Below, in pieces: positions 30,945 through 40,458 of a stretch of DNA of 64,000 nt (position 1 is the first letter of the stretch; each line of letters opens with the position of its first letter). The position numbers were made by a program, and so were the translations under genes. The stretch comes from a phage. The stretch lies in sequence record NC_100327.1; one strand, 5' to 3'. The notes beneath the pieces are model-generated. The model made no database searches and was not told where the DNA came from. It saw only the letters and a program-made list of their open reading frames with translations.

Positions 30945-31021
30945 TGGTCTCCACGGAGTGATTCGAACACTCGACCTCCTGATCCCAAATCAGGCGCTCT
31001 ACCAAGCTGAGCTACGCGGAG
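30945..31021 (-). tRNA. tRNA-Pro (anticodon UGG)
   Basis: Manual fold: acceptor CTCCGCG/CGTGGAG with C1-G72, anticodon loop TTTGGGA, T-loop TTCGAAT, encoded CCA. Confidence 0.8.
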
Positions 31022-31032
31022 TATTTATTATT

Positions 31033-31107
31033 TGGTGGCCCTGGGTGGAATTGAACCACCGTCTGGCGATTATGAGTCGCTTGCTTGAACCTTCCAGCTA
31101 CAGGGCC
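31033..31107 (-). tRNA. tRNA-Met (anticodon CAU; could be Ile-lysidine type)
   Basis: Acceptor GGCCCTG/CAGGGCC, anticodon loop CTCATAA, T-loop TTCAATT, encoded CCA. Confidence 0.7.
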
Positions 31108-31108
31108 A

Positions 31109-31184
31109 TGGTGCTGATGGCAGGACTTGAACCCGCAACCTATTGATTACAAATCAATTGCACTACCGATTGTGCTACATCAGC
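31109..31184 (-). tRNA. tRNA-Thr (anticodon UGU)
   Basis: Acceptor GCTGATG/CATCAGC, anticodon loop TTTGTAA, T-loop TTCAAGT, encoded CCA. Confidence 0.8.
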
Positions 31185-31189
31185 AAAAA

Positions 31190-31288
31190 GGTGCTAGGTG
31201 ATGGAATCGAACCACCTATGTATTCAACGACTACCTCGTCTATTTTCAGGATTAAAAATCCTCGCCCTTGCCAAAGGGCTTACCTAGC
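31190..31288 (-). ncRNA. non-canonical tRNA-like RNA (99 nt; identity unresolved)
   Basis: 7-bp acceptor-like helix GCTAGGT/ACCTAGC, D-like hairpin, canonical T-arm (GGTGG TTCGATT CCATC), but ~20 nt too long with a GGATT-TTT-AATCC hairpin in place of a normal anticodon arm. Confidence 0.4.
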
Positions 31289-31295
31289 TCAGTAT

Positions 31296-31382
31296 GTTGA
31301 CCATGTTGCTAGTCGGCGATGACGACTGTAACATTTGATAATCCGGTTCTGCTTCCGACTTTCGCTTAATTACAAGGTCAAC
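31296..31382 (-). ncRNA. structured small RNA candidate closed by a 7-bp terminal helix (not a canonical tRNA)
   Basis: GTTGACC...GGTCAAC terminal inverted repeat with internal hairpins (AGTCG-N7-CGACT); sits inside the tRNA operon between the element above and tRNA-Ser. Confidence 0.3.
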
Positions 31383-31386
31383 AATG

Positions 31387-31477
31387 TGGCGGAGAGTAAT
31401 GGAATCGAACCATCATCGAGTCATCCTCAACGGGACGGTTTTCAAGACCGCTTGAGCACCATTGCTCCCTACCCTCC
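31387..31477 (-). tRNA. tRNA-Ser (anticodon UGA), class II with long variable arm
   Basis: Anticodon arm CGGTCTTGAAAACCG, long variable arm, T-loop TTCGATT, encoded CCA; 91 nt. Confidence 0.75.
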
Positions 31478-31591
31478 TTTATAAATTATACTGATAATGA
31501 CACTGATTTTCGAGCAGTTAGTGACTAGTATAAACGACGATAAATATCAATGCCATTATCTGTATTATTTATGCATCTAAAAATATAAATT

Positions 31592-31678
31592 TGGTGGGGA
31601 GTGGTGGAGTCGAACCACCCGAGTCGCAATGACAATAGATTTACAGTCTACACCGCTACCTCTACGGGATAACTCCCC
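31592..31678 (-). tRNA. tRNA-Tyr (anticodon GUA), class II
   Basis: Anticodon arm GTAGACTGTAAATCTAT, long variable arm, T-loop TTCGACT, encoded CCA; 87 nt. Confidence 0.8.
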
Positions 31679-31682
31679 AATT

Positions 31683-31757
31683 TGGCACCCCGTACTGGAC
31701 TCGAACCAGTGTCAACGGCTTAGAAGGCCGCTGCTTTATCCACTAAGCTAACAGGGC
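31683..31757 (-). tRNA. tRNA-Arg (anticodon UCU)
   Basis: D-arm GCTTAGTGGATAAAGC, anticodon loop CTTCTAA, T-loop TTCGAGT, encoded CCA; acceptor has two G-U pairs. Confidence 0.75.
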
Positions 31758-33637: not shown

Positions 33638-34140
33638 AGCTGCCTCCTCTTCAAGTTATAGAAAAACTCACTGTATCGCTTTGTAACGAGCTTTTCTATC
33701 AAACTGGTGCGATTGCATTACCTGGTATAGTTTATATAGCTGTGGAGCGATTTAGGGGCCTTCTTGTCAGTTTCCACACATAAACTTCATCCAAGCTCGC
33801 GCGGGAGACTCTCAACCGACTCCTTACGGCGCTGGCAAGCTTTCGTCGGTGGTCCACATCAGTGCTCGGCCTTTGGCCTGCGCTATCGCTTCGCTCCCAC
33901 ACATGTTAACAGACCTGCATGTATGAACTTCTGTTATTGTGTGCACCAAGGAGGCCCGGCATCTCGCCCCTCGTAGGCGAGTGCCAATGAAGGGCCGACA
34001 CTGCCCATAGTAAGTAATAAATTTAAAACATGGTACTTAGGATCTAGTATATTCTACATAAGTTAAGTATATGTACTTAGTACCATAAGTACTAGATCTT
34101 TTATTTTTTATTATTTAGTTATTTTAGTTATATTCTTTAT

Positions 34141-34250
34141 GTGTCCGTATCACGGACAGTTAGTGTCCGTATTACGGGCAGATGTGTCCGCGTGACGGAC
34201 AGTAGTGTCCGTATCACGGACAGTTAATAGTATCCGTTCCATGACGAACA
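34141..34250. repeat. array of palindromic iteron-like repeats (TGTCCGT-N3-ACGGACA) with ~21-bp phasing
   Basis: Copies at 34143-34159, 34165-34181, 34185-34201 and 34206-34222, plus a degenerate copy at 34231-34250; adjacent AT-rich tract at 34085-34140. Confidence 0.6.
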
Positions 34251-34297: not shown

Positions 34298-34648
34298 CTA
34301 ACCAGTTGTTGACATCCGAATAACTTCTTCTGGTGGCAAAACTTTGGAAAATGTGCATCTTTTACCTCTCCCTTGTGTGGATGTTTCAACCACTCCTGCA
34401 CATTCTAAAGTTTTAACGCACGCTGCTGCTTTTGTTTTCTTTATCCCAACATCTGCTGCAATTTTCCTTGTGCTTGGTGTGAAGCGTGAATTTCCTCCAA
34501 GCTTATACCAGTTGTGCAGGTAGCAGTATACGATCTTGTCATACAAGTCAAGAACAACAACCTCCCCAGTTGTGTCATTCAAAACTTTTGACATAGATAG
34601 TATTTCAAGGGGGACTTTAAGATATAGCAGCTTATCCCCATCTTTCAT
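34298..34648 (-). CDS. putative helix-turn-helix DNA-binding protein
   Basis: 116-aa ORF; RKIAADVGIKKTKAAACVKTLECAGVVE segment looks like an HTH; gene ends ~50 bp from the iteron array. Confidence 0.35.
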   Translation of the reverse strand: MKDGDKLLYLKVPLEILSMSKVLNDTTGEVVVLDLYDKIVYCYLHNWYKLGGNSRFTPSTRKIAADVGIKKTKAAACVKTLECAGVVETSTQGRGKRCTFSKVLPPEEVIRMSTTG

Positions 34649-34695: not shown

Positions 34696-35250
34696 TTACT
34701 CCCTGCTGTCAATATCAAAACTCATTGCAATACGGTATGCCTCTTCTAATGGTAAGAGTCTCCCCCACACATCCCAACCGACATCAAGCTGCCTGCCAAA
34801 CAACTGTTGTGTGGTTCCGTGAGCATGACCGAACAGTTGGACTGATCCGTGAGGCTTTCTGTTCCACTTTGCAAACTGGTAATGGCTCATACAGATCAAA
34901 TTCTTGTTGTGGCGAAGCTCGTAATAATCTACAACCTCATGACCGAACTCTTTCATAATTCTGACAGTCGTCCTTGTGTCATGGTTGCCACGAACAAGAA
35001 TAATATGTCCGTTCAACATATTTAGAATATCTGGAAGTAAGTTGTTGATATTCTTATCATTAGTGCACGCAATATCTCCCAAGTGGAACACAGTGTCTGC
35101 AGGTGACACAACAGAGTTCCACTCGGCGATGATTCCCGCATTCATACTGTCAAGATTGTGATCATACTGAGATCTGTGTTTTTGACATGAATCAAACTCC
35201 ATGACCCGCTGGTGGAGAAAGTGTGTGTCGCTTGTTACAAAGTATTTCAT
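34696..35250 (-). CDS. calcineurin-like metallophosphoesterase (putative 2',3'/3'-phosphatase partner of the kinase)
   Basis: Motifs DTHF, GDIA and GNHD; start placed at MKYFVTSDTHF (ATG 35250, GAGGA RBS) rather than the track start, which overlaps the kinase gene. Confidence 0.6.
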   Translation of the reverse strand: MKYFVTSDTHFLHQRVMEFDSCQKHRSQYDHNLDSMNAGIIAEWNSVVSPADTVFHLGDIACTNDKNINNLLPDILNMLNGHIILVRGNHDTRTTVRIMKEFGHEVVDYYELRHNKNLICMSHYQFAKWNRKPHGSVQLFGHAHGTTQQLFGRQLDVGWDVWGRLLPLEEAYRIAMSFDIDSRE

Positions 35251-35257
35251 ACATTCC

Positions 35258-35668
35258 TCATTTAAGTTTAATGCAGTTTTTAAGCTGGCGTTCCATACGA
35301 TCCACAACCTTGTCTGGAACATCATGAATGCTTTTATTACCGTGGCGGTTTTCAACCACGATCACGGTATAACTATACCCATGACTGATTGCCATGTCAA
35401 CATATTCCTGCACATGTTTTTCTTTTGTAAACGTATTACTTACCACGATACGGTCGTATCCCATACGCATCATATCTTCTACGTTATCTTTGCACCATTT
35501 TGCTGCGAGTGTTACTTTACTTGCATCCCAGTTGTAATTGCCGTCATCGTCATACCAGAACATGTCGTTCTCAAAATGTGGATACAGACCCTCTAAAGAT
35601 AGCGCATTTGCCAGTGTTGATTTGCCAGACCCTGGTAGACCACGCACGATATATAGCATTTTAGACAT
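35258..35668 (-). CDS. polynucleotide 5'-kinase (P-loop kinase domain, T4 Pnk N-terminal-like)
   Basis: Start at ATG 35668 with GGAGGG RBS; Walker A GLPGSGKST; size and motifs resemble the kinase half of T4 Pnk. Confidence 0.6.
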   Translation of the reverse strand: MSKMLYIVRGLPGSGKSTLANALSLEGLYPHFENDMFWYDDDGNYNWDASKVTLAAKWCKDNVEDMMRMGYDRIVVSNTFTKEKHVQEYVDMAISHGYSYTVIVVENRHGNKSIHDVPDKVVDRMERQLKNCIKLK

Positions 35669-35768
35669 AGTGACCCTCCGTTTTAATTTCAACGGTAGTA
35701 TACCTAACTGTTTTGTTAATTTCAAGTGTTGACACTAGGTTATTTGTGTGGCAGGATAGACTGACAAA

Positions 35769-36704
35769 ATGACAAATGAGGAACATATAATGAAGTATTT
35801 TAATGCAGACGACCTAGTTGACAAAGGTCTTGTAACCAGTAGGTATTACCCAGATCTCGGGTTAAAGATCTATAAATATGCTAGAAAAGTATTTTACAAC
35901 AATTTATGGCATTTGTCCCCTCGTTTACTGGAGTGCCGAGGCATTGTTGTAGGTAATGAAGGAAATGTTGTGGCATGGCCCTTCACAAAAGTGTTTAACT
36001 TGGGAGAAAACTCCACCAACCTGCCTGACAATAAGCTTGTGACTGCGGTAGAGAAAAAGAACGGATTCCTTGGTGTGGTATCATCTCATAAAGGTGACCT
36101 ATTGTTCTCAACAACCGGGTCTCTTGATTCTCCATATTGTAACCTTGCAAAGGAAACCATCCAAGAGCAATGTGGTAATTTAGATCTTATCAAGAAGGTT
36201 ATGGGCAATGAAAACATGACATTCATGTTTGAAATTTGTCACCCTTCAGATCCGCATATTGTTCAAGAAGACCATGGCGCATATTTGATAGGTTGCAGAT
36301 ATAATGATTCTGGAATAATGCTACCAGAAGCCGCTTTAGATGGGATTGCCAAATACCTTGGTGCAAAACGTCCTCACACTGTGCGTGAAATTCCGTTCAG
36401 CTATGCAAAAGAGTTAGCTGCAGAAACAAGAGGTGAAGGATATATGATTCGTAAGCCTTACTACCCTTATGATCTGCAGTTGAAGATCAAGTCTCCATAC
36501 TATCTGGCACGAAAGGCCGTAATGAGGGGTAAAGCTTGGAAGATTTGGGATGATGATATCTTTAAACGTGTTGACGAAGAGTTTTACGGCATGGTAAACT
36601 TCATTCGTAACAACTACACAGAGGATGTATGGAACTGCCTCCTGGAGCAGGAACGCCGTGAGATACTTGACTGCTATTTCCACAACGAGGACTATATGCA
36701 ATGA
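35769..36704 (+). CDS. RNA ligase 1 (T4 RnlA-like)
   Basis: Conserved blocks shared with T4 Rnl1 as I recall them (LLECRGIVV, KVFNLGEN, nucleotidyl-transferase lysine motif EKKNGFLG); sits opposite the kinase/phosphatase genes. Confidence 0.6.
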   Translation: MTNEEHIMKYFNADDLVDKGLVTSRYYPDLGLKIYKYARKVFYNNLWHLSPRLLECRGIVVGNEGNVVAWPFTKVFNLGENSTNLPDNKLVTAVEKKNGFLGVVSSHKGDLLFSTTGSLDSPYCNLAKETIQEQCGNLDLIKKVMGNENMTFMFEICHPSDPHIVQEDHGAYLIGCRYNDSGIMLPEAALDGIAKYLGAKRPHTVREIPFSYAKELAAETRGEGYMIRKPYYPYDLQLKIKSPYYLARKAVMRGKAWKIWDDDIFKRVDEEFYGMVNFIRNNYTEDVWNCLLEQERREILDCYFHNEDYMQ

Positions 36705-37051
36705 AGAAGTTGATTGTGTGGCTGGATGACTTGAGAGATCCGTCAAATTACGAGCTCCAAGACGCTGTTTGGCTAAAGAATTCCTCCGAGTTTATAGATT
36801 TTATTAACGATAATAGAAAGCTCTACAGACGCGTTTCTGAGTGGCACATGGACAACGACCTTGGAGAGTTGTTCGAAGGGTACGATTGCCTATCTATGTT
36901 GGAGGAAAAATTTGTATTTGGTAAGCCCCCTGTAGTTGACAACGTGAAGATTTTCGTGCATACTTCTAACCCATCAGCGGCTCGTAAATTCATGCTTGCA
37001 GCTGACTCGTTTAAAAAGTTTGGAATAGAGATTAAACAAAACATCTACTGA
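36701..37051 (+). CDS. hypothetical protein, small Rossmann/receiver-like fold
   Basis: 116-aa ORF translationally coupled between the RNA ligase and the Sir2-like gene. Confidence 0.3.
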   Translation: MKKLIVWLDDLRDPSNYELQDAVWLKNSSEFIDFINDNRKLYRRVSEWHMDNDLGELFEGYDCLSMLEEKFVFGKPPVVDNVKIFVHTSNPSAARKFMLAADSFKKFGIEIKQNIY

Positions 37052-37059
37052 GGACACTT

Positions 37060-37821
37060 ATGCGACGACTGATTATTATCTCCGGTGCTGGTTTGAGCGC
37101 TGAATCTGGTATTCCCACTTTCCGATCTGGTAGCACTGCAATGTGGGAGAATTTCAGCATCGATGAGGTGTGCAACATCCACACCTTTGCCAAGAACTAC
37201 TACAAGGTGCATGACTTTTACAATGCACGTCGTGTAGCTCTAGGCGGTGTTGAGCCTAACCTTGCACATCTTCGGATCGCTGAGTGGTATTCCCGCTGGT
37301 CTGGTCGTGTGATCAACCTTACCACCAATGTAGATGATTTGCTGGAGCGTGCGGGTGTAAAACATGAAGATATTTTACATGTTCACGGGTATTTGCCAGA
37401 AATAGTCTATGAGGACGACGAAGGAAGTAACGTCATTAAGGACATTGGATACTCTGAGGTAGATGCAGGAAAGTATACCTGGGTTAAGCCTAATGTGGTG
37501 TTCTTCGGAGAAGTAGCTCCGAAGTATACAGACATGTATGACCTGTTGACTTCTCTTACGAGTAATGATATGGTTATCCTTGTAGGGTGTTCCAACACAG
37601 TTATCAATTTTAACTGGGAGCTATTCCCTGCCTGCAATAAGGGAACCAAACTGCTGATCGTTAACAAATACGACTCACAGCAGCTAGGGGAGAATGGTAT
37701 TTCACGTAGTGATATTTACCAATATGAGGATCGCGGCATCCCAGTTTGGTTTAACGGGGCGGTTGATGCTTTCTCTGATAAAACATTCATTGAGACCGTA
37801 GAAAACTTTATGGAACTTTAA
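37060..37821 (+). CDS. Sir2-family (sirtuin-like) NAD-dependent protein
   Basis: Sirtuin motifs GAGLSAESGIPTFR, TTNVD, HVHG and VVFFGE; 253 aa. Confidence 0.65.
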   Translation: MRRLIIISGAGLSAESGIPTFRSGSTAMWENFSIDEVCNIHTFAKNYYKVHDFYNARRVALGGVEPNLAHLRIAEWYSRWSGRVINLTTNVDDLLERAGVKHEDILHVHGYLPEIVYEDDEGSNVIKDIGYSEVDAGKYTWVKPNVVFFGEVAPKYTDMYDLLTSLTSNDMVILVGCSNTVINFNWELFPACNKGTKLLIVNKYDSQQLGENGISRSDIYQYEDRGIPVWFNGAVDAFSDKTFIETVENFMEL

Positions 37822-37834
37822 AAGGAGACCTTTA

Positions 37835-38548
37835 ATGCTGAATACCAAATTAATTGACAACCTGGAAAAACTGTCCCAACCTGAAAACTACCTTTGGTCT
37901 GCCAACTGGGTGGAAAACTGGAACCGTGTGGCAGCTAAAGTGAAAAAATCATACACACCATTCGAATTACAGCTTAGCTTCATTGAGGAAGAGTTCAATG
38001 AAGTTTTGGAAGAGCTGGAGAAAGGTGATGGCGGAGATCACCTGCTAAAAGAGGCCTGCGATCTTCACGTTGTCACAAGTTATGCCGCTTATCTTGTTAA
38101 TGATAATCACGAAAAGTGGTCAAACCTGTTTGATAATCCACAGGGTCTTAAGTTCAAGATCGGTGAGTTCTATGATACACTGATCGCTGCGAAAAACACC
38201 TCTAAGCAAAAAGCGTCCGCTTACCGCTTAGCAGAGTTGTCAACAGCTTTGCTGTTCCAGCTTCGCGGCGATGTGTGCGGGATGATGCGTAAGGTTCTCA
38301 AATCGAATGACAGCAAGTTTGCACGGGTCAACCATCTACAGTATTCACACGGTGCCAGTGCAGATATGCCTGCTGAACAACTCATCGAGTTGGAGATTAA
38401 AGATCTTGAGCGTCGTTTTGGTGGTCGCTACGAAGGTTTCGTTGCTAAAGAGGAGTTCTACAACGGCAATAAAGTTATTATATTCCTTGACAGTAAAGGT
38501 AAGATTATGAAGCCTTCGAGCTTCAAGGATGTAACAGAGTATATTTAA
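37835..38548 (+). CDS. MazG-like nucleotide pyrophosphohydrolase domain protein
   Basis: N-terminal EExxE...E...D helix motif (FIEEEFNEVLEELEKGDGGDHLLKEACDL); C-terminal half of unknown function. Confidence 0.45.
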   Translation: MLNTKLIDNLEKLSQPENYLWSANWVENWNRVAAKVKKSYTPFELQLSFIEEEFNEVLEELEKGDGGDHLLKEACDLHVVTSYAAYLVNDNHEKWSNLFDNPQGLKFKIGEFYDTLIAAKNTSKQKASAYRLAELSTALLFQLRGDVCGMMRKVLKSNDSKFARVNHLQYSHGASADMPAEQLIELEIKDLERRFGGRYEGFVAKEEFYNGNKVIIFLDSKGKIMKPSSFKDVTEYI

Positions 38549-38554
38549 CAACAT

Positions 38555-38581
38555 AGCCGGGATTACCCGGCTTTACTTATT
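38555..38581 (+). terminator. rho-independent terminator
   Basis: agccggg atta cccggct hairpin followed by a T-rich tract, directly after the stop of the 37835..38548 gene. Confidence 0.6.
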
Positions 38582-38919: not shown

Positions 38920-39175
38920 TCTTGCTAAACCTGTAGAAGCACATCAGTTTGACGGAAGCTCTTCATCAGTATCTGATCTGCAACGGTGGATTGATACAGG
39001 TGTGTTTACATCGTCACCTGTTCGGACCAGAGATCTTCGTCGCATGTGTGAGCTTGTCGAGCCTTTTGGTAACCTTGTCTTGTACCAGGGAGATTGGCTA
39101 GTTGACTTTATGGGAGACTGGTTGGTAATGAGTAAAGAAGAGATGTTTAAAATTTTTAAGGAAGAGGCCGAGTAA
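38906..39175 (+). CDS. hypothetical protein
   Basis: 89-aa ORF overlapping its neighbours. Confidence 0.3.
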   Translation: MPLFNLAKPVEAHQFDGSSSSVSDLQRWIDTGVFTSSPVRTRDLRRMCELVEPFGNLVLYQGDWLVDFMGDWLVMSKEEMFKIFKEEAE

Positions 39176-40458
39176 TGCATCAGATCAAAACAACACTGTA
39201 CGCACTGAATAAAGATGGCAGCTACCAACAGTGGAAAGTATTCACGGATGGTGATAAGGTTATCGTAGAGTTTGGCAAGCTTGATGGTAAACTGCAGTAC
39301 AAAGAGACGGTATGCACACCTAAGAACGTAGGTCGTGCCAACGAGACTACAGCTGAGCAACAGGCCGAGCTTGAGGCTATCAGCAAGTGGGAAAAACAAG
39401 TCCGTCTGGGGTATGTTGAAAACATGGAAGATTGCGAGCAGGGTGTTGATCTTTTACCCATGCTGGTGCATGACTACCTGAAGCGTGGCAAGGCACTTAA
39501 ATTACCTTGCTGGATCTTGCGTAAGTTAGATGGCCTTCGTCTGCTTGTTGTTTTCCAAAATGGTGAGCCTAAATTTATTTCCCGTGGTAATAAGTCCTAC
39601 CCTATTCAAGGAAAGCTTTTAGAGCAACTTCGTTCTTTCCATTCTACCACTGGGATTAAACAACTTGATGGGGAACTATACATTCATGGTCTTCCTTTGC
39701 AGAAAATAGTGTCTCTTGCTAAACGGTGGCGCACACAGGAAGAGATTCAGGCCGAGATCGATAAAGACTATGAGGCAGATAAAAAACGCCGTCATGCAGC
39801 AATTAAGGCAGGCTTATCAACATACAAAAACTTCAACAAGGTAGATATTCCTGTCGATGTTGAGCCTGTTCGTGATGATTTGCGTTACGGTGGGTACTGT
39901 AGCTACGATCTGGAGTATCACATTTTTGATATTCCTAGCGACAAGGTGTGGTGGGATCCAGAAACAGAGTCTGGACGCTGCAAGGATCTTATGGATGCAG
40001 AGGATACCGTTACCACTCTGATGCTTGACCATATCAAGGTTGTTGACGCAGAGCTTGCGTACACAGTTGATCATTGCGAAGAATCTGTTGGTATATTCAT
40101 GTCCGAAGGATATGAAGGTACTATCATGCGTAATTTCTGCGGTAAATACGAGTACGGTCAGCGAACATCTGAAGCATTGAAATGGAAAAAGTTCAACGAC
40201 GCAGAGGTGAAAGTTATTGACGTTGAGAAAGATAAGAATGATGAAGGTGTTCTTATCTGTGTTGACAAGGAAGGTGTTATTGTTAAAATGAAGATGAAAG
40301 GCACGCACGAGGAGCGTAGCTATGACAGGATGCAGGAAATGATCGGCAAGTTTGTCACCTTCAAATATCAATCAAGGACAGAAGACAACAACTACCAATT
40401 CCCTGTCGGTATCTGCGTCCGAAATGTTGACCCAGACACTTGGGAGGTTCTGGAATGA
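39175..40458 (+). CDS. ATP-dependent DNA ligase (KxDG nucleotidyltransferase)
   Basis: Motif I RKLDGLR and motif III-like LDGELYIHG; 427 aa. Confidence 0.55.
   Translation: MHQIKTTLYALNKDGSYQQWKVFTDGDKVIVEFGKLDGKLQYKETVCTPKNVGRANETTAEQQAELEAISKWEKQVRLGYVENMEDCEQGVDLLPMLVHDYLKRGKALKLPCWILRKLDGLRLLVVFQNGEPKFISRGNKSYPIQGKLLEQLRSFHSTTGIKQLDGELYIHGLPLQKIVSLAKRWRTQEEIQAEIDKDYEADKKRRHAAIKAGLSTYKNFNKVDIPVDVEPVRDDLRYGGYCSYDLEYHIFDIPSDKVWWDPETESGRCKDLMDAEDTVTTLMLDHIKVVDAELAYTVDHCEESVGIFMSEGYEGTIMRNFCGKYEYGQRTSEALKWKKFNDAEVKVIDVEKDKNDEGVLICVDKEGVIVKMKMKGTHEERSYDRMQEMIGKFVTFKYQSRTEDNNYQFPVGICVRNVDPDTWEVLE

Follow-up and report, generated by a model that had tools for sequence, protein, structure and literature searches.

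Phage T4 mends broken RNA with polynucleotide kinase-phosphatase (Pnkp, PseT) and RNA ligase 1 (RnlA, gp63), which counter the anticodon nuclease PrrC; the classical target of this nuclease is tRNA-Lys(UUU). In the bacterial Pnkp/Hen1 systems, including the Pnkp1-Rnl-Hen1 system of Capnocytophaga, ends are healed by a metallophosphoesterase (MPE) and a Pnk-fold kinase and are joined by an ATP-dependent ligase. The Pnkp of Clostridium thermocellum carries the kinase, MPE and ligase domains in one polypeptide, and its MPE domain performs the 3' healing (PMC2190708, PMC3675462). Fungal and plant tRNA splicing by Trl1 and Tpt1 also uses an Rnl1-like ligase domain and a P-loop RNA kinase. Here we analyzed a locus at positions 34696-38548 of a phage sequence of 64,000 nucleotides (nt) (NC_100327.1; the whole stretch is called the window below), which encodes a kinase, an MPE and an Rnl1-type ligase. 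We consider that the locus is probably a heal-and-seal module for the repair of RNA breaks in an rV5-like phage.

The same neighborhood has been described in Escherichia phage V5 by Iyer, Burroughs, Anantharaman and Aravind (2022, Viruses 14:1977; PMC9503650), who predicted that it performs NAD+-using RNA repair. Their type 2 neighborhood, "prototyped by Escherichia phage V5 and Proteus phage Mydo", comprises a sirtuin, a T4-like tRNA ligase, cREC, a P-loop kinase and MazG, in some cases joined by a calcineurin-like phosphoesterase, and the sirtuin is proposed, as a prediction, to strip 2'-phosphates from RNA in the manner of KptA/Tpt1. Since the genes are annotated in GenBank and the prediction has been published, we count the gene set as known. 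The locus in the window corresponds to theirs in position, phage group and all six components; however, the paper places the sirtuin at the center and treats the phosphoesterase as occasional, whereas the counts presented here indicate the opposite. Beyond the existing annotation and the published description, the sole new point for this window is thus the count of core versus accessory genes: ligase, kinase and MPE recur widely as the core, to which the genes for the sirtuin, cREC and MazG are lineage-specific additions.

A first-pass annotation, made from the letters of the window alone, had placed three open reading frames (ORFs) here, and all three were present at the claimed coordinates and on the claimed strands, with the kinase and MPE genes divergent from the ligase gene in the head-to-head arrangement described. 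It had regarded them as a three-enzyme set. The trio was recovered, but the extent was drawn too narrowly, since the ligase operon also holds cREC, Sir2 and MazG-like genes. The features of the locus, with lengths in amino acids (aa), are the following.

34696..35250, minus strand: stand-alone binuclear MPE, 184 aa, assigned by Pfam, PHROG and motifs; proposed 2',3'-cyclic phosphate / 3'-phosphate end-healing enzyme
35258..35668, minus strand: P-loop kinase, 136 aa, with the T4 Pnk / CthPnk fold and no fused phosphatase; proposed RNA 5'-OH kinase
35790..36704, plus strand: short (304 aa) ATP-dependent RNA ligase of the Rnl1 family; the ORF opens at 35769, and the likely start is at 35790
35669..35789, no strand: divergent intergenic control region between the kinase-MPE unit and the ligase operon, with a promoter-like element and two ribosome-binding sites
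36701..37051, plus strand: cREC (cyclic-phosphate-processing receiver-like) domain protein; PF20274 cREC_REC, PHROG 1479
37060..37821, plus strand: Sir2-family (sirtuin) protein of the ligase operon; PF02146, PHROG 2162
37835..38548, plus strand: homologue of MazG-like nucleotide pyrophosphohydrolases, last gene of the rightward operon; PHROG 671
38555..38572, no strand: G+C-rich hairpin of 7 bp (6 GC), matching a terminator pattern on both strands
30945..31757, minus strand: seven phage tRNA genes (Pro, Met/Ile, Thr, an odd Lys-like gene, Ser, Tyr and Arg) found by ARAGORN and Rfam; context only

The same three chemical steps as in T4 are predicted for this locus. The ligase is a genuine Rnl1 homologue in which every catalytic residue is kept, and the kinase shares the fold, the P-loop and Asp35 of T4 Pnk. 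However, the kinase is a stand-alone protein, the phosphatase is a separate binuclear MPE instead of a HAD domain, the ligase lacks about 70 aa relative to T4 Rnl1, its C-terminal region being smaller, and falls far under the RnlA equivalog cut-off, and the cREC, Sir2 and MazG genes are attached. Moreover, in a transposon study of the related phage Bas54 (see below), the ligase was dispensable for plaque formation, unlike T4 rnlA. With the bacterial Pnkp/Hen1 systems the locus would share end healing by an MPE, a Pnk-fold kinase and an ATP-dependent ligase, and both CthPnk and Pnkp1 rank near the top when the kinase is compared with solved structures. It differs from them in having three separate genes on two strands, a ligase of the Rnl1 type and an MPE of the aq_1665 clade, in which no specific resemblance to the phosphatase of CthPnkp could be detected. 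No Hen1 partner turned up in the cassette, in which no search was aimed at Hen1. The resemblance to Trl1 and Tpt1 lies in the Rnl1-like ligase domain and the P-loop kinase and, if a sirtuin-centered scheme is right, possibly in an NAD+-dependent clean-up; the cassette has neither a 2H cyclic phosphodiesterase nor a Tpt1/KptA homologue, and its enzymes are separate proteins.

The ligase matched the full length of the Pfam profile PF09511 RNA_lig_T4_1 (positions 1-227 of 227; 1e-14, 55.4 bits against a cut-off of 28.3) and also PHROG 562 (2.8e-66). Single-sequence phmmer searches of the Protein Data Bank (PDB) with the ligase and the kinase gave nothing meaningful, whereas a family profile built from eight ligase homologues with 27-49% identity matched T4 Rnl1 (2C5U) with E=1.3e-26. 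Conservation was judged over the eight divergent homologues and 60 database sequences of the family. Invariant residues align with T4 R54, K75, F77, K99, G102, E159, E227, K240, K242 and Y246, and they include the residues of nucleotidyltransferase motifs I, III, IV and V (K96, G99, E155, E223, K239 and K241 in the 311-aa numbering). The Rnl1-specific N-terminal elements, ECRG and K-x-F-N, are also kept, with R57, K74, F76 and N77 invariant. In T4 Rnl1, residues R54, K75 and F77 are functionally essential, and K99 is the lysine that becomes adenylylated. The AlphaFold (AF2) model of the ligase, built on the family alignment, was confident, with a predicted local distance difference test score (pLDDT) of 92.4, and a Foldseek search with this model returned fungal Trl1 ligase domains, T4 Rnl1 and Rnl3 enzymes in that order, the Trl1 domains being only marginally ahead of T4 Rnl1. 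Based on the profile match to 2C5U, the invariant catalytic residues and the confident model with its Trl1 and Rnl1 matches, we predict that the protein belongs to the Rnl1 family and is catalytically intact, in agreement with the initial assignment.

The kinase matched Pfam AAA_33 (1e-10), PHROG 2071 (3e-58) and PHROG 505 "polynucleotide kinase" (5e-10), and NCBIfam contained nothing informative for this protein, the cREC protein or the MazG-like protein. In comparisons with solved structures, the highest scores were obtained for T4 Pnk (14.8) and CthPnk (14.6), followed by the tRNA(Sec) kinase PSTK (13.7) and Pnkp1 (12.9), whereas adenylate, uridylate and thymidylate kinases scored 8.5 or lower. 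The best neighbors are thus RNA-repair polynucleotide kinases by both sequence profile and structure, well above nucleotide kinases, and polynucleotide and tRNA kinases lie nearer in fold than do kinases of nucleotides or nucleosides. The P-loop GxxxxGK[ST] and the general-base aspartate (G10, G15, K16 and D35) show no variation among 54 homologues, with D35 aligned to the catalytic D35 of T4 Pnk. Arg108, the counterpart of T4 R122, is also invariant in this set, but is a tyrosine in one of seven phage homologues. The protein consists of the kinase domain only and has no fused C-terminal HAD (DxDxT) 3'-phosphatase; the domain searches agree with the earlier proposal of an independent MPE in the phosphatase role. 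Judged by its fold, the kinase would act on a polynucleotide or RNA, although the residue pattern is not fully T4-like. Since the profile and fold searches assigned the kinase to no nucleotide-kinase family and the ligase to no unrelated fold, the interpretation in the first-pass annotation survived this check.

A separate observation concerns PHROG 8238, a profile of 737 positions labelled "RNA ligase". It aligned with the kinase at 2-109 and with the ligase at 440-686, and its middle part had no match to the MPE. This pattern suggests that natural kinase-X-Rnl1 fusion proteins exist.

The MPE passed the Pfam cut-offs for Metallophos_2 (29 bits, cut-off 27) and Metallophos (27.9 bits, cut-off 21.5), and matched PHROG 547 "phosphoesterase" (1.5e-51). 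All five MPE signature motifs (DxH, GD, GNH[DE], H and GHxH) are present and make up a complete binuclear metal site; the corresponding residues D8xH10, G58D59, G88N89H90, H123 and G141H142xH144 are invariant in seven divergent homologues with 31-49% identity. The closest solved relative was the uncharacterised Aquifex protein aq_1665 (1XM7; 3.4e-18), followed by weak PDB matches to Rv0805, GpdQ-type and other MPEs. In NCBIfam, the match to the ligase-associated PdeM family was faint (E 2.6e-4, far under the cut-off). Judging by its motifs, the MPE is very probably enzymatically active. A role in RNA 2',3'-end healing is suggested by its context, not by family membership, and its substrate is the least certain of the trio.

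The context is a conserved one. We examined seven divergent lineages, represented by Phapecoctavirus, Mydovirus, a T5-like vibriophage, Pakpunavirus, Otagovirus, Saclayvirus (a genus of Acinetobacter phages) and a Streptomyces phage. A kinase homologue was located within ~1.6 kb of Rnl1 in all seven, usually directly downstream, and an MPE within ~2.2 kb in six; the Streptomyces phage carries a 296-aa protein annotated as polynucleotide kinase in place of the MPE. Scans of IMG/VR covered 80 loci for each of the anchor families Rnl1, MPE and kinase, with neighbors counted within 6 kb. Near Rnl1, the kinase was found in 66 loci and the MPE in 56, and all three genes occurred together in 50. The MPE anchors had Rnl1 nearby in 48 loci and the kinase in 12, and the kinase anchors had the MPE in 51 and Rnl1 in 29. 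Metagenomic contigs with distant kinase homologues showed the same neighbors. When the ligases were collapsed at 50% identity into 25 clusters, the kinase was nearby in 18, the MPE in 16 and both in 13.

The arrangement of the genes varied among the IMG/VR loci, with six different gene orders. In 33 of 66 loci, no more than 100 nt separate the reading frames of Rnl1 and the kinase, and the head-to-head arrangement, which is a peculiarity of the rV5 lineage, was seen in a single one of the 50 three-gene loci. By our own estimate, a random single-copy gene in a genome of 90-150 kb would fall within such an interval in about one case out of ten. Co-occurrence thus goes beyond chance, and the linkage looks selected rather than the result of inherited synteny alone. 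Thus, the ligase, kinase and MPE genes form a conserved module.

The analysis establishes which families and folds the three enzymes belong to, that their active sites are intact, that their genes are linked in a conserved way, and how the operon is built; the substrates, the order of the reactions and a role in counter-defense are inferred. In the favored scheme, tRNA or other RNAs of translation would be cut by RNases of the host, for example anticodon nucleases and the RNases of toxin or defense systems. The Pnk-fold mini-kinase would add a phosphate to the 5'-OH end, and the stand-alone MPE would open and remove the 2',3'-cyclic or 3'-phosphate to yield a 3'-OH, as does the MPE domain of bacterial Pnkp. 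The short Rnl1-type ligase would then seal the 3'-OH and 5'-phosphate via a lysyl-AMP intermediate. The cREC, Sir2 and MazG-like proteins would be lineage-specific accessories, probably providing a second, NAD+-using clearance of cyclic or 2'-phosphate ends, or disposal of the products.

If this scheme holds, Vequintavirinae, Stephanstirmvirinae, Pakpunavirus, Otagovirus, Saclayvirus, T5-like vibriophages and many metagenomic phages would share a three-protein RNA repair kit. Such a kit would depart from the T4 paradigm in that a stand-alone mini-kinase and an MPE replace the fused HAD domain. It would also widen the known phage counter-defense against tRNA-targeting immunity and provide compact new RNA end-modifying enzymes.

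Transposon mutagenesis data are available for Bas54, a Vequintavirus, from the HIDEN-SEQ preprint (10.1101/2025.11.20.689424). From matching gene coordinates, we take Bas54 to be phage MaxBurger, which has 97.4% identity to the window over this region. In E. coli K-12, the mean insertion count was 192 for the ligase (60 TA sites), 171 for the kinase, 140 for the MPE, 88 for cREC, 406 for the sirtuin and 310 for the MazG-like gene, compared to 13.6 for the adjacent "transcriptional regulator". According to these data, the six genes are dispensable on E. coli K-12, which fits a conditional role in counter-defense.

Several observations weigh against the repair scheme. The ligase scored 38.7 bits against TIGR02308, the NCBIfam equivalog of T4 RnlA, for which the cut-off is 242, and thus represents a distant, shorter subfamily of ~300 aa rather than an RnlA equivalog. 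Its C-terminal helices span residues 236-299 in the model, which is ~65 aa compared to ~120 for the T4 domain, and the profile alignment to T4 Rnl1 stops near T4 residue 284. In T4 Rnl1, the all-helical C-terminal domain (residues ~255-374) is reported to confer tRNA specificity. In the kinase, the equivalent of T4 Pnk Arg38 is not conserved (W/H/F/Q/L/R) and that of Arg126 is ambiguous, at a position that is not conserved; both of these substrate-phosphate-binding arginines are essential in T4 Pnk. The MPE falls into the uncharacterised aq_1665 clade, outside that of CthPnkp and lambda phosphatase, and its profile retrieved neither the CthPnkp phosphatase domain nor lambda phosphatase from the PDB at E-values up to 1.

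The distribution and the genetic data add to these points. The kinase-MPE pair occurred without a detectable Rnl1 in 28 of the 80 kinase-anchored loci, and no Rnl2-type ligase was found within 6 kb in the Rnl1-less kinase- or MPE-anchored loci using a single Rnl2 query. These loci either use a different or very divergent ligase, or have a function that is independent of a ligase. In the transposon data, the six genes were not depleted in the one comparison with a clinical isolate among the rows covered here (log2 fold change +0.1 to +0.4, q >=0.75), and no host condition is known to require them. In searches of the literature for experiments on these proteins, only annotation papers and the HIDEN-SEQ study came up, and no biochemical or genetic test of RNA repair was among them. 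In summary, the observation reported in the first-pass annotation was confirmed, and its interpretation was partly supported, but it was incomplete and not new.

The accessory genes bear on the first of the alternative explanations. The cREC protein matched PF20274 cREC_REC (2.9e-15, 57 bits, cut-off 27) and PHROG 1479 (6e-35). The domain has been defined as a predicted cyclic-phosphate-processing enzyme that opens 2',3'-cyclic or ADP-ribose cyclic phosphates (Iyer et al. 2021, PMC7824862; PMC9503650). The sirtuin matched PF02146 (5e-27) and PHROG 2162 (1.9e-108), but was under every NCBIfam cut-off of the CobB type. Inspection of its translation by eye indicated that the GAGxS and HG catalytic signatures are kept and that the CxxC pairs are absent; the protein thus seems to lack the usual zinc-binding module. 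The MazG-like protein matched PHROG 671 "nucleotide pyrophosphohydrolase" (1e-21) and had no Pfam match. The six-gene set of the V5 type is complete at 34696-38548, and the same set is present in Mydo.

NAD+-dependent repair centered on the sirtuin, as modelled by Iyer et al. (2022) and with the MPE in a peripheral position, is unlikely, although it fares best among the alternatives. According to this model, cREC or the MPE would open the 2',3'-cyclic phosphate to a 2'-phosphate, the kinase would phosphorylate the 5' end and the Rnl1-type ligase would join the ends. Sir2 would thereafter move the 2'-phosphate to NAD+ in a Tpt1/KptA-like manner, and MazG, cREC or the MPE would clear the ADP-ribose cyclic phosphate. 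The model was explicitly proposed for phage V5 (PMC9503650), and it agrees with the tight, hairpin-ended operon of the ligase, cREC, Sir2 and MazG-like genes. The top structural matches of the ligase, with their marginal lead over T4 Rnl1, also come from fungal Trl1, which acts in a pathway that leaves a 2'-phosphate. However, among the 80 Rnl1 loci only 7 had cREC, 9 had Sir2 and 10 had MazG nearby, all of them close relatives, as compared to 66 with the kinase and 56 with the MPE, and the conserved core consequently does not need the sirtuin. In addition, cREC and Sir2 were found without each other (L016/L017 versus L019/L021/L023), no sirtuin is known to be an RNA 2'-phosphotransferase, and the authors of PMC9503650 call their own claim a prediction.

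We also considered a second, NAD+-dependent route that operates beside the core, with the sirtuin as an RNA 2'-phosphotransferase (an analogue of Tpt1/KptA) and cREC as a new 2',3'-cyclic phosphodiesterase, and with repair combined with the atypical tRNA-Lys(UUU) described below against anticodon nucleases. This extension is speculative and we regard it as doubtful. If true, a yeast-like heal-and-seal pathway would have been assembled from unrelated folds, alongside the mini-Pnk, the MPE and the short Rnl1.

Slightly less likely still is that the kinase and MPE act on small molecules, such as nucleotides or NAD+-derived or cyclic-nucleotide immune messengers, rather than on RNA ends. Together with Sir2, cREC and MazG they would then form a set for counter-signalling or nucleotide metabolism, and the ligase would be a mere neighbor. 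Iyer et al. use the term "nucleotide kinase" for the kinase, the weak PDB matches of the MPE (Rv0805, GpdQ-type) are cyclic-nucleotide or glycerophosphodiester phosphodiesterases, and both the 28 Rnl1-less kinase-MPE loci and the NAD-salvage genes that adjoin the module in several phages are in line with such a function. On the other hand, the kinase fold is clearly nearest to the polynucleotide and tRNA kinases, the kinase and Rnl1 frames are closely spaced in half of the 66 loci, and PHROG 8238 spans both proteins, suggesting fusions.

The NAD+ salvage genes encode nicotinamide/nicotinate phosphoribosyltransferase and PRPP synthetase, and they adjoin the Rnl1-kinase module in five genomes: Mydo, Vibrio phage Chester, PAK_P2, Acinetobacter TAC1 and one metagenomic contig. 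Their positions are L004 1554-4101, L005 9738-12744, L006 8322-11148, L008 12551-14819 and L011 5799-9435. In the part of phage nom that matches the window, no NAD+ salvage genes are annotated.

It is improbable that the kinase and MPE instead clean 5'-OH/3'-phosphate ends of DNA for the phage ATP-dependent DNA ligase, which is encoded at 39175-40458, 2.5 kb downstream. T4 Pnkp also acts on DNA, 25 of the 80 Rnl1 loci have a DNA ligase gene no more than 6 kb away, and the faint match of the MPE to PdeM points in the same direction. Nevertheless, the linkage of kinase and MPE to Rnl1 is both tighter and wider (66 and 56 loci versus 25), and the DNA ligase gene of the window lies beyond the hairpin at 38555-38572. 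Finally, a main function of the Rnl1 homologue as a tail-fiber attachment factor like T4 gp63, as implied by the label "RNA ligase and tail fiber protein attachment catalyst" in PHROG 562 and many GenBank records, is very improbable. Homology to T4 is the source of this label, the family has kept the ligase active site in full, and the Bas54 gene tolerates insertions well at its 60 TA sites (mean 192), which argues against an essential T4-like role in tail-fiber attachment.

The proposed heal-and-seal module is organized into two divergent units. The start codon of the kinase at 35668 is preceded by a GGAGGG ribosome-binding site 6-7 nt upstream, and a promoter-like element, TTGAAA-17-TATACT, is located upstream of the gene on the minus strand (35725..35697). 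For the ligase, the start was initially placed at 35769, and GenBank records are split between proteins of 311 and 305 aa. The most likely start, rather than 35769, is the ATG at 35790, which is preceded by a GAGGAA ribosome-binding site, agrees with the MKFN at the N-termini of the homologues and is used in two near-identical records. The search for a sigma-70 promoter of the rightward operon gave no convincing candidate; a TTGACA at 35729 lacks an acceptable -10 element at a spacing of 16-18 nt. The start of cREC overlaps the ligase stop codon (ATGA), the gaps before the Sir2 and MazG-like genes are 8 and 13 nt, and the hairpin is situated 7 nt past the MazG-like stop codon. The ligase is thus co-transcribed with the cREC, Sir2 and MazG-like genes as one operon.

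The cassette is positioned at the point where transcription diverges. To the left, all on the minus strand, are structural genes, the terminase and the seven tRNA genes, and to the right, on the plus strand, are genes for DNA metabolism. The first-pass annotation had placed the module next to the tRNA cluster. The cluster (30945-31757) is not adjacent, being separated from the cassette by 2.9 kb with about eight small ORFs and a repeat array. Furthermore, tRNA genes were located within 7 kb of the module in only three of the seven divergent lineages. The link between the module and the tRNA cluster is therefore weak, and the proximity is not conserved. A scan of 30.5-39.5 kb with Rfam at a permissive threshold revealed only tRNAs and sub-threshold noise.

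One of the tRNA genes is atypical. The gene at 31190-31288 on the minus strand, 97-99 nt long, was assigned a 4-base anticodon by ARAGORN and scored 35.5 bits with Rfam, and it is named tRNA-Lys, tRNA-Stop(tta) or "OTHER" in public records. By eye, the anticodon loop reads TTTTTAA, giving UUU (Lys), with a variable arm of ~25 nt, and closure of the anticodon stem to a 5-nt loop is possible. The alternative that the gene carries a ligase-dependent intron was rejected by eye in favor of the long variable arm. This tRNA-Lys could serve as a nuclease-resistant replacement or as a decoy.

The repeat array consists of four tandem 21-bp units (GTGTCCGTATCACGGACAGTA) at 34099-34224, each with a GTCCGT/ACGGAC palindrome, and is preceded by an AT-rich tract. 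It lies ~75 bp past the 3' end of a helix-turn-helix (HTH) gene at 34298-34648, which matches PHROG 12838 "replication initiation protein" and DUF6945/HTH_36. In the HIDEN-SEQ data, the Bas54 orthologue of this gene is sparse in transposon insertions (mean 13.6). The HTH gene may encode the initiator of an origin formed by the array, or the array may be a set of operators.

Escherichia phage JeffSchatz matches the segment 34000-38600 with 99.0% identity, and 121 phage records, almost all from Vequintavirus (rV5-like) coliphages, reach 90% identity or more. By this sequence comparison, we assign the window to Vequintavirus. Near-identical records label the trio "putative phosphoesterase", "polynucleotide kinase" or "AAA family ATPase", and "RNA ligase (1 and tail attachment protein)". 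The matches with at least 90% identity also include 18 records named "Campylobacter phage", 16 of which give Campylobacter jejuni as the host. In the single record of this group that was checked, Campylobacter phage C2, the ligase has 98.1% protein identity to that of the window, which suggests that these deposits have mislabelled hosts or result from contamination.

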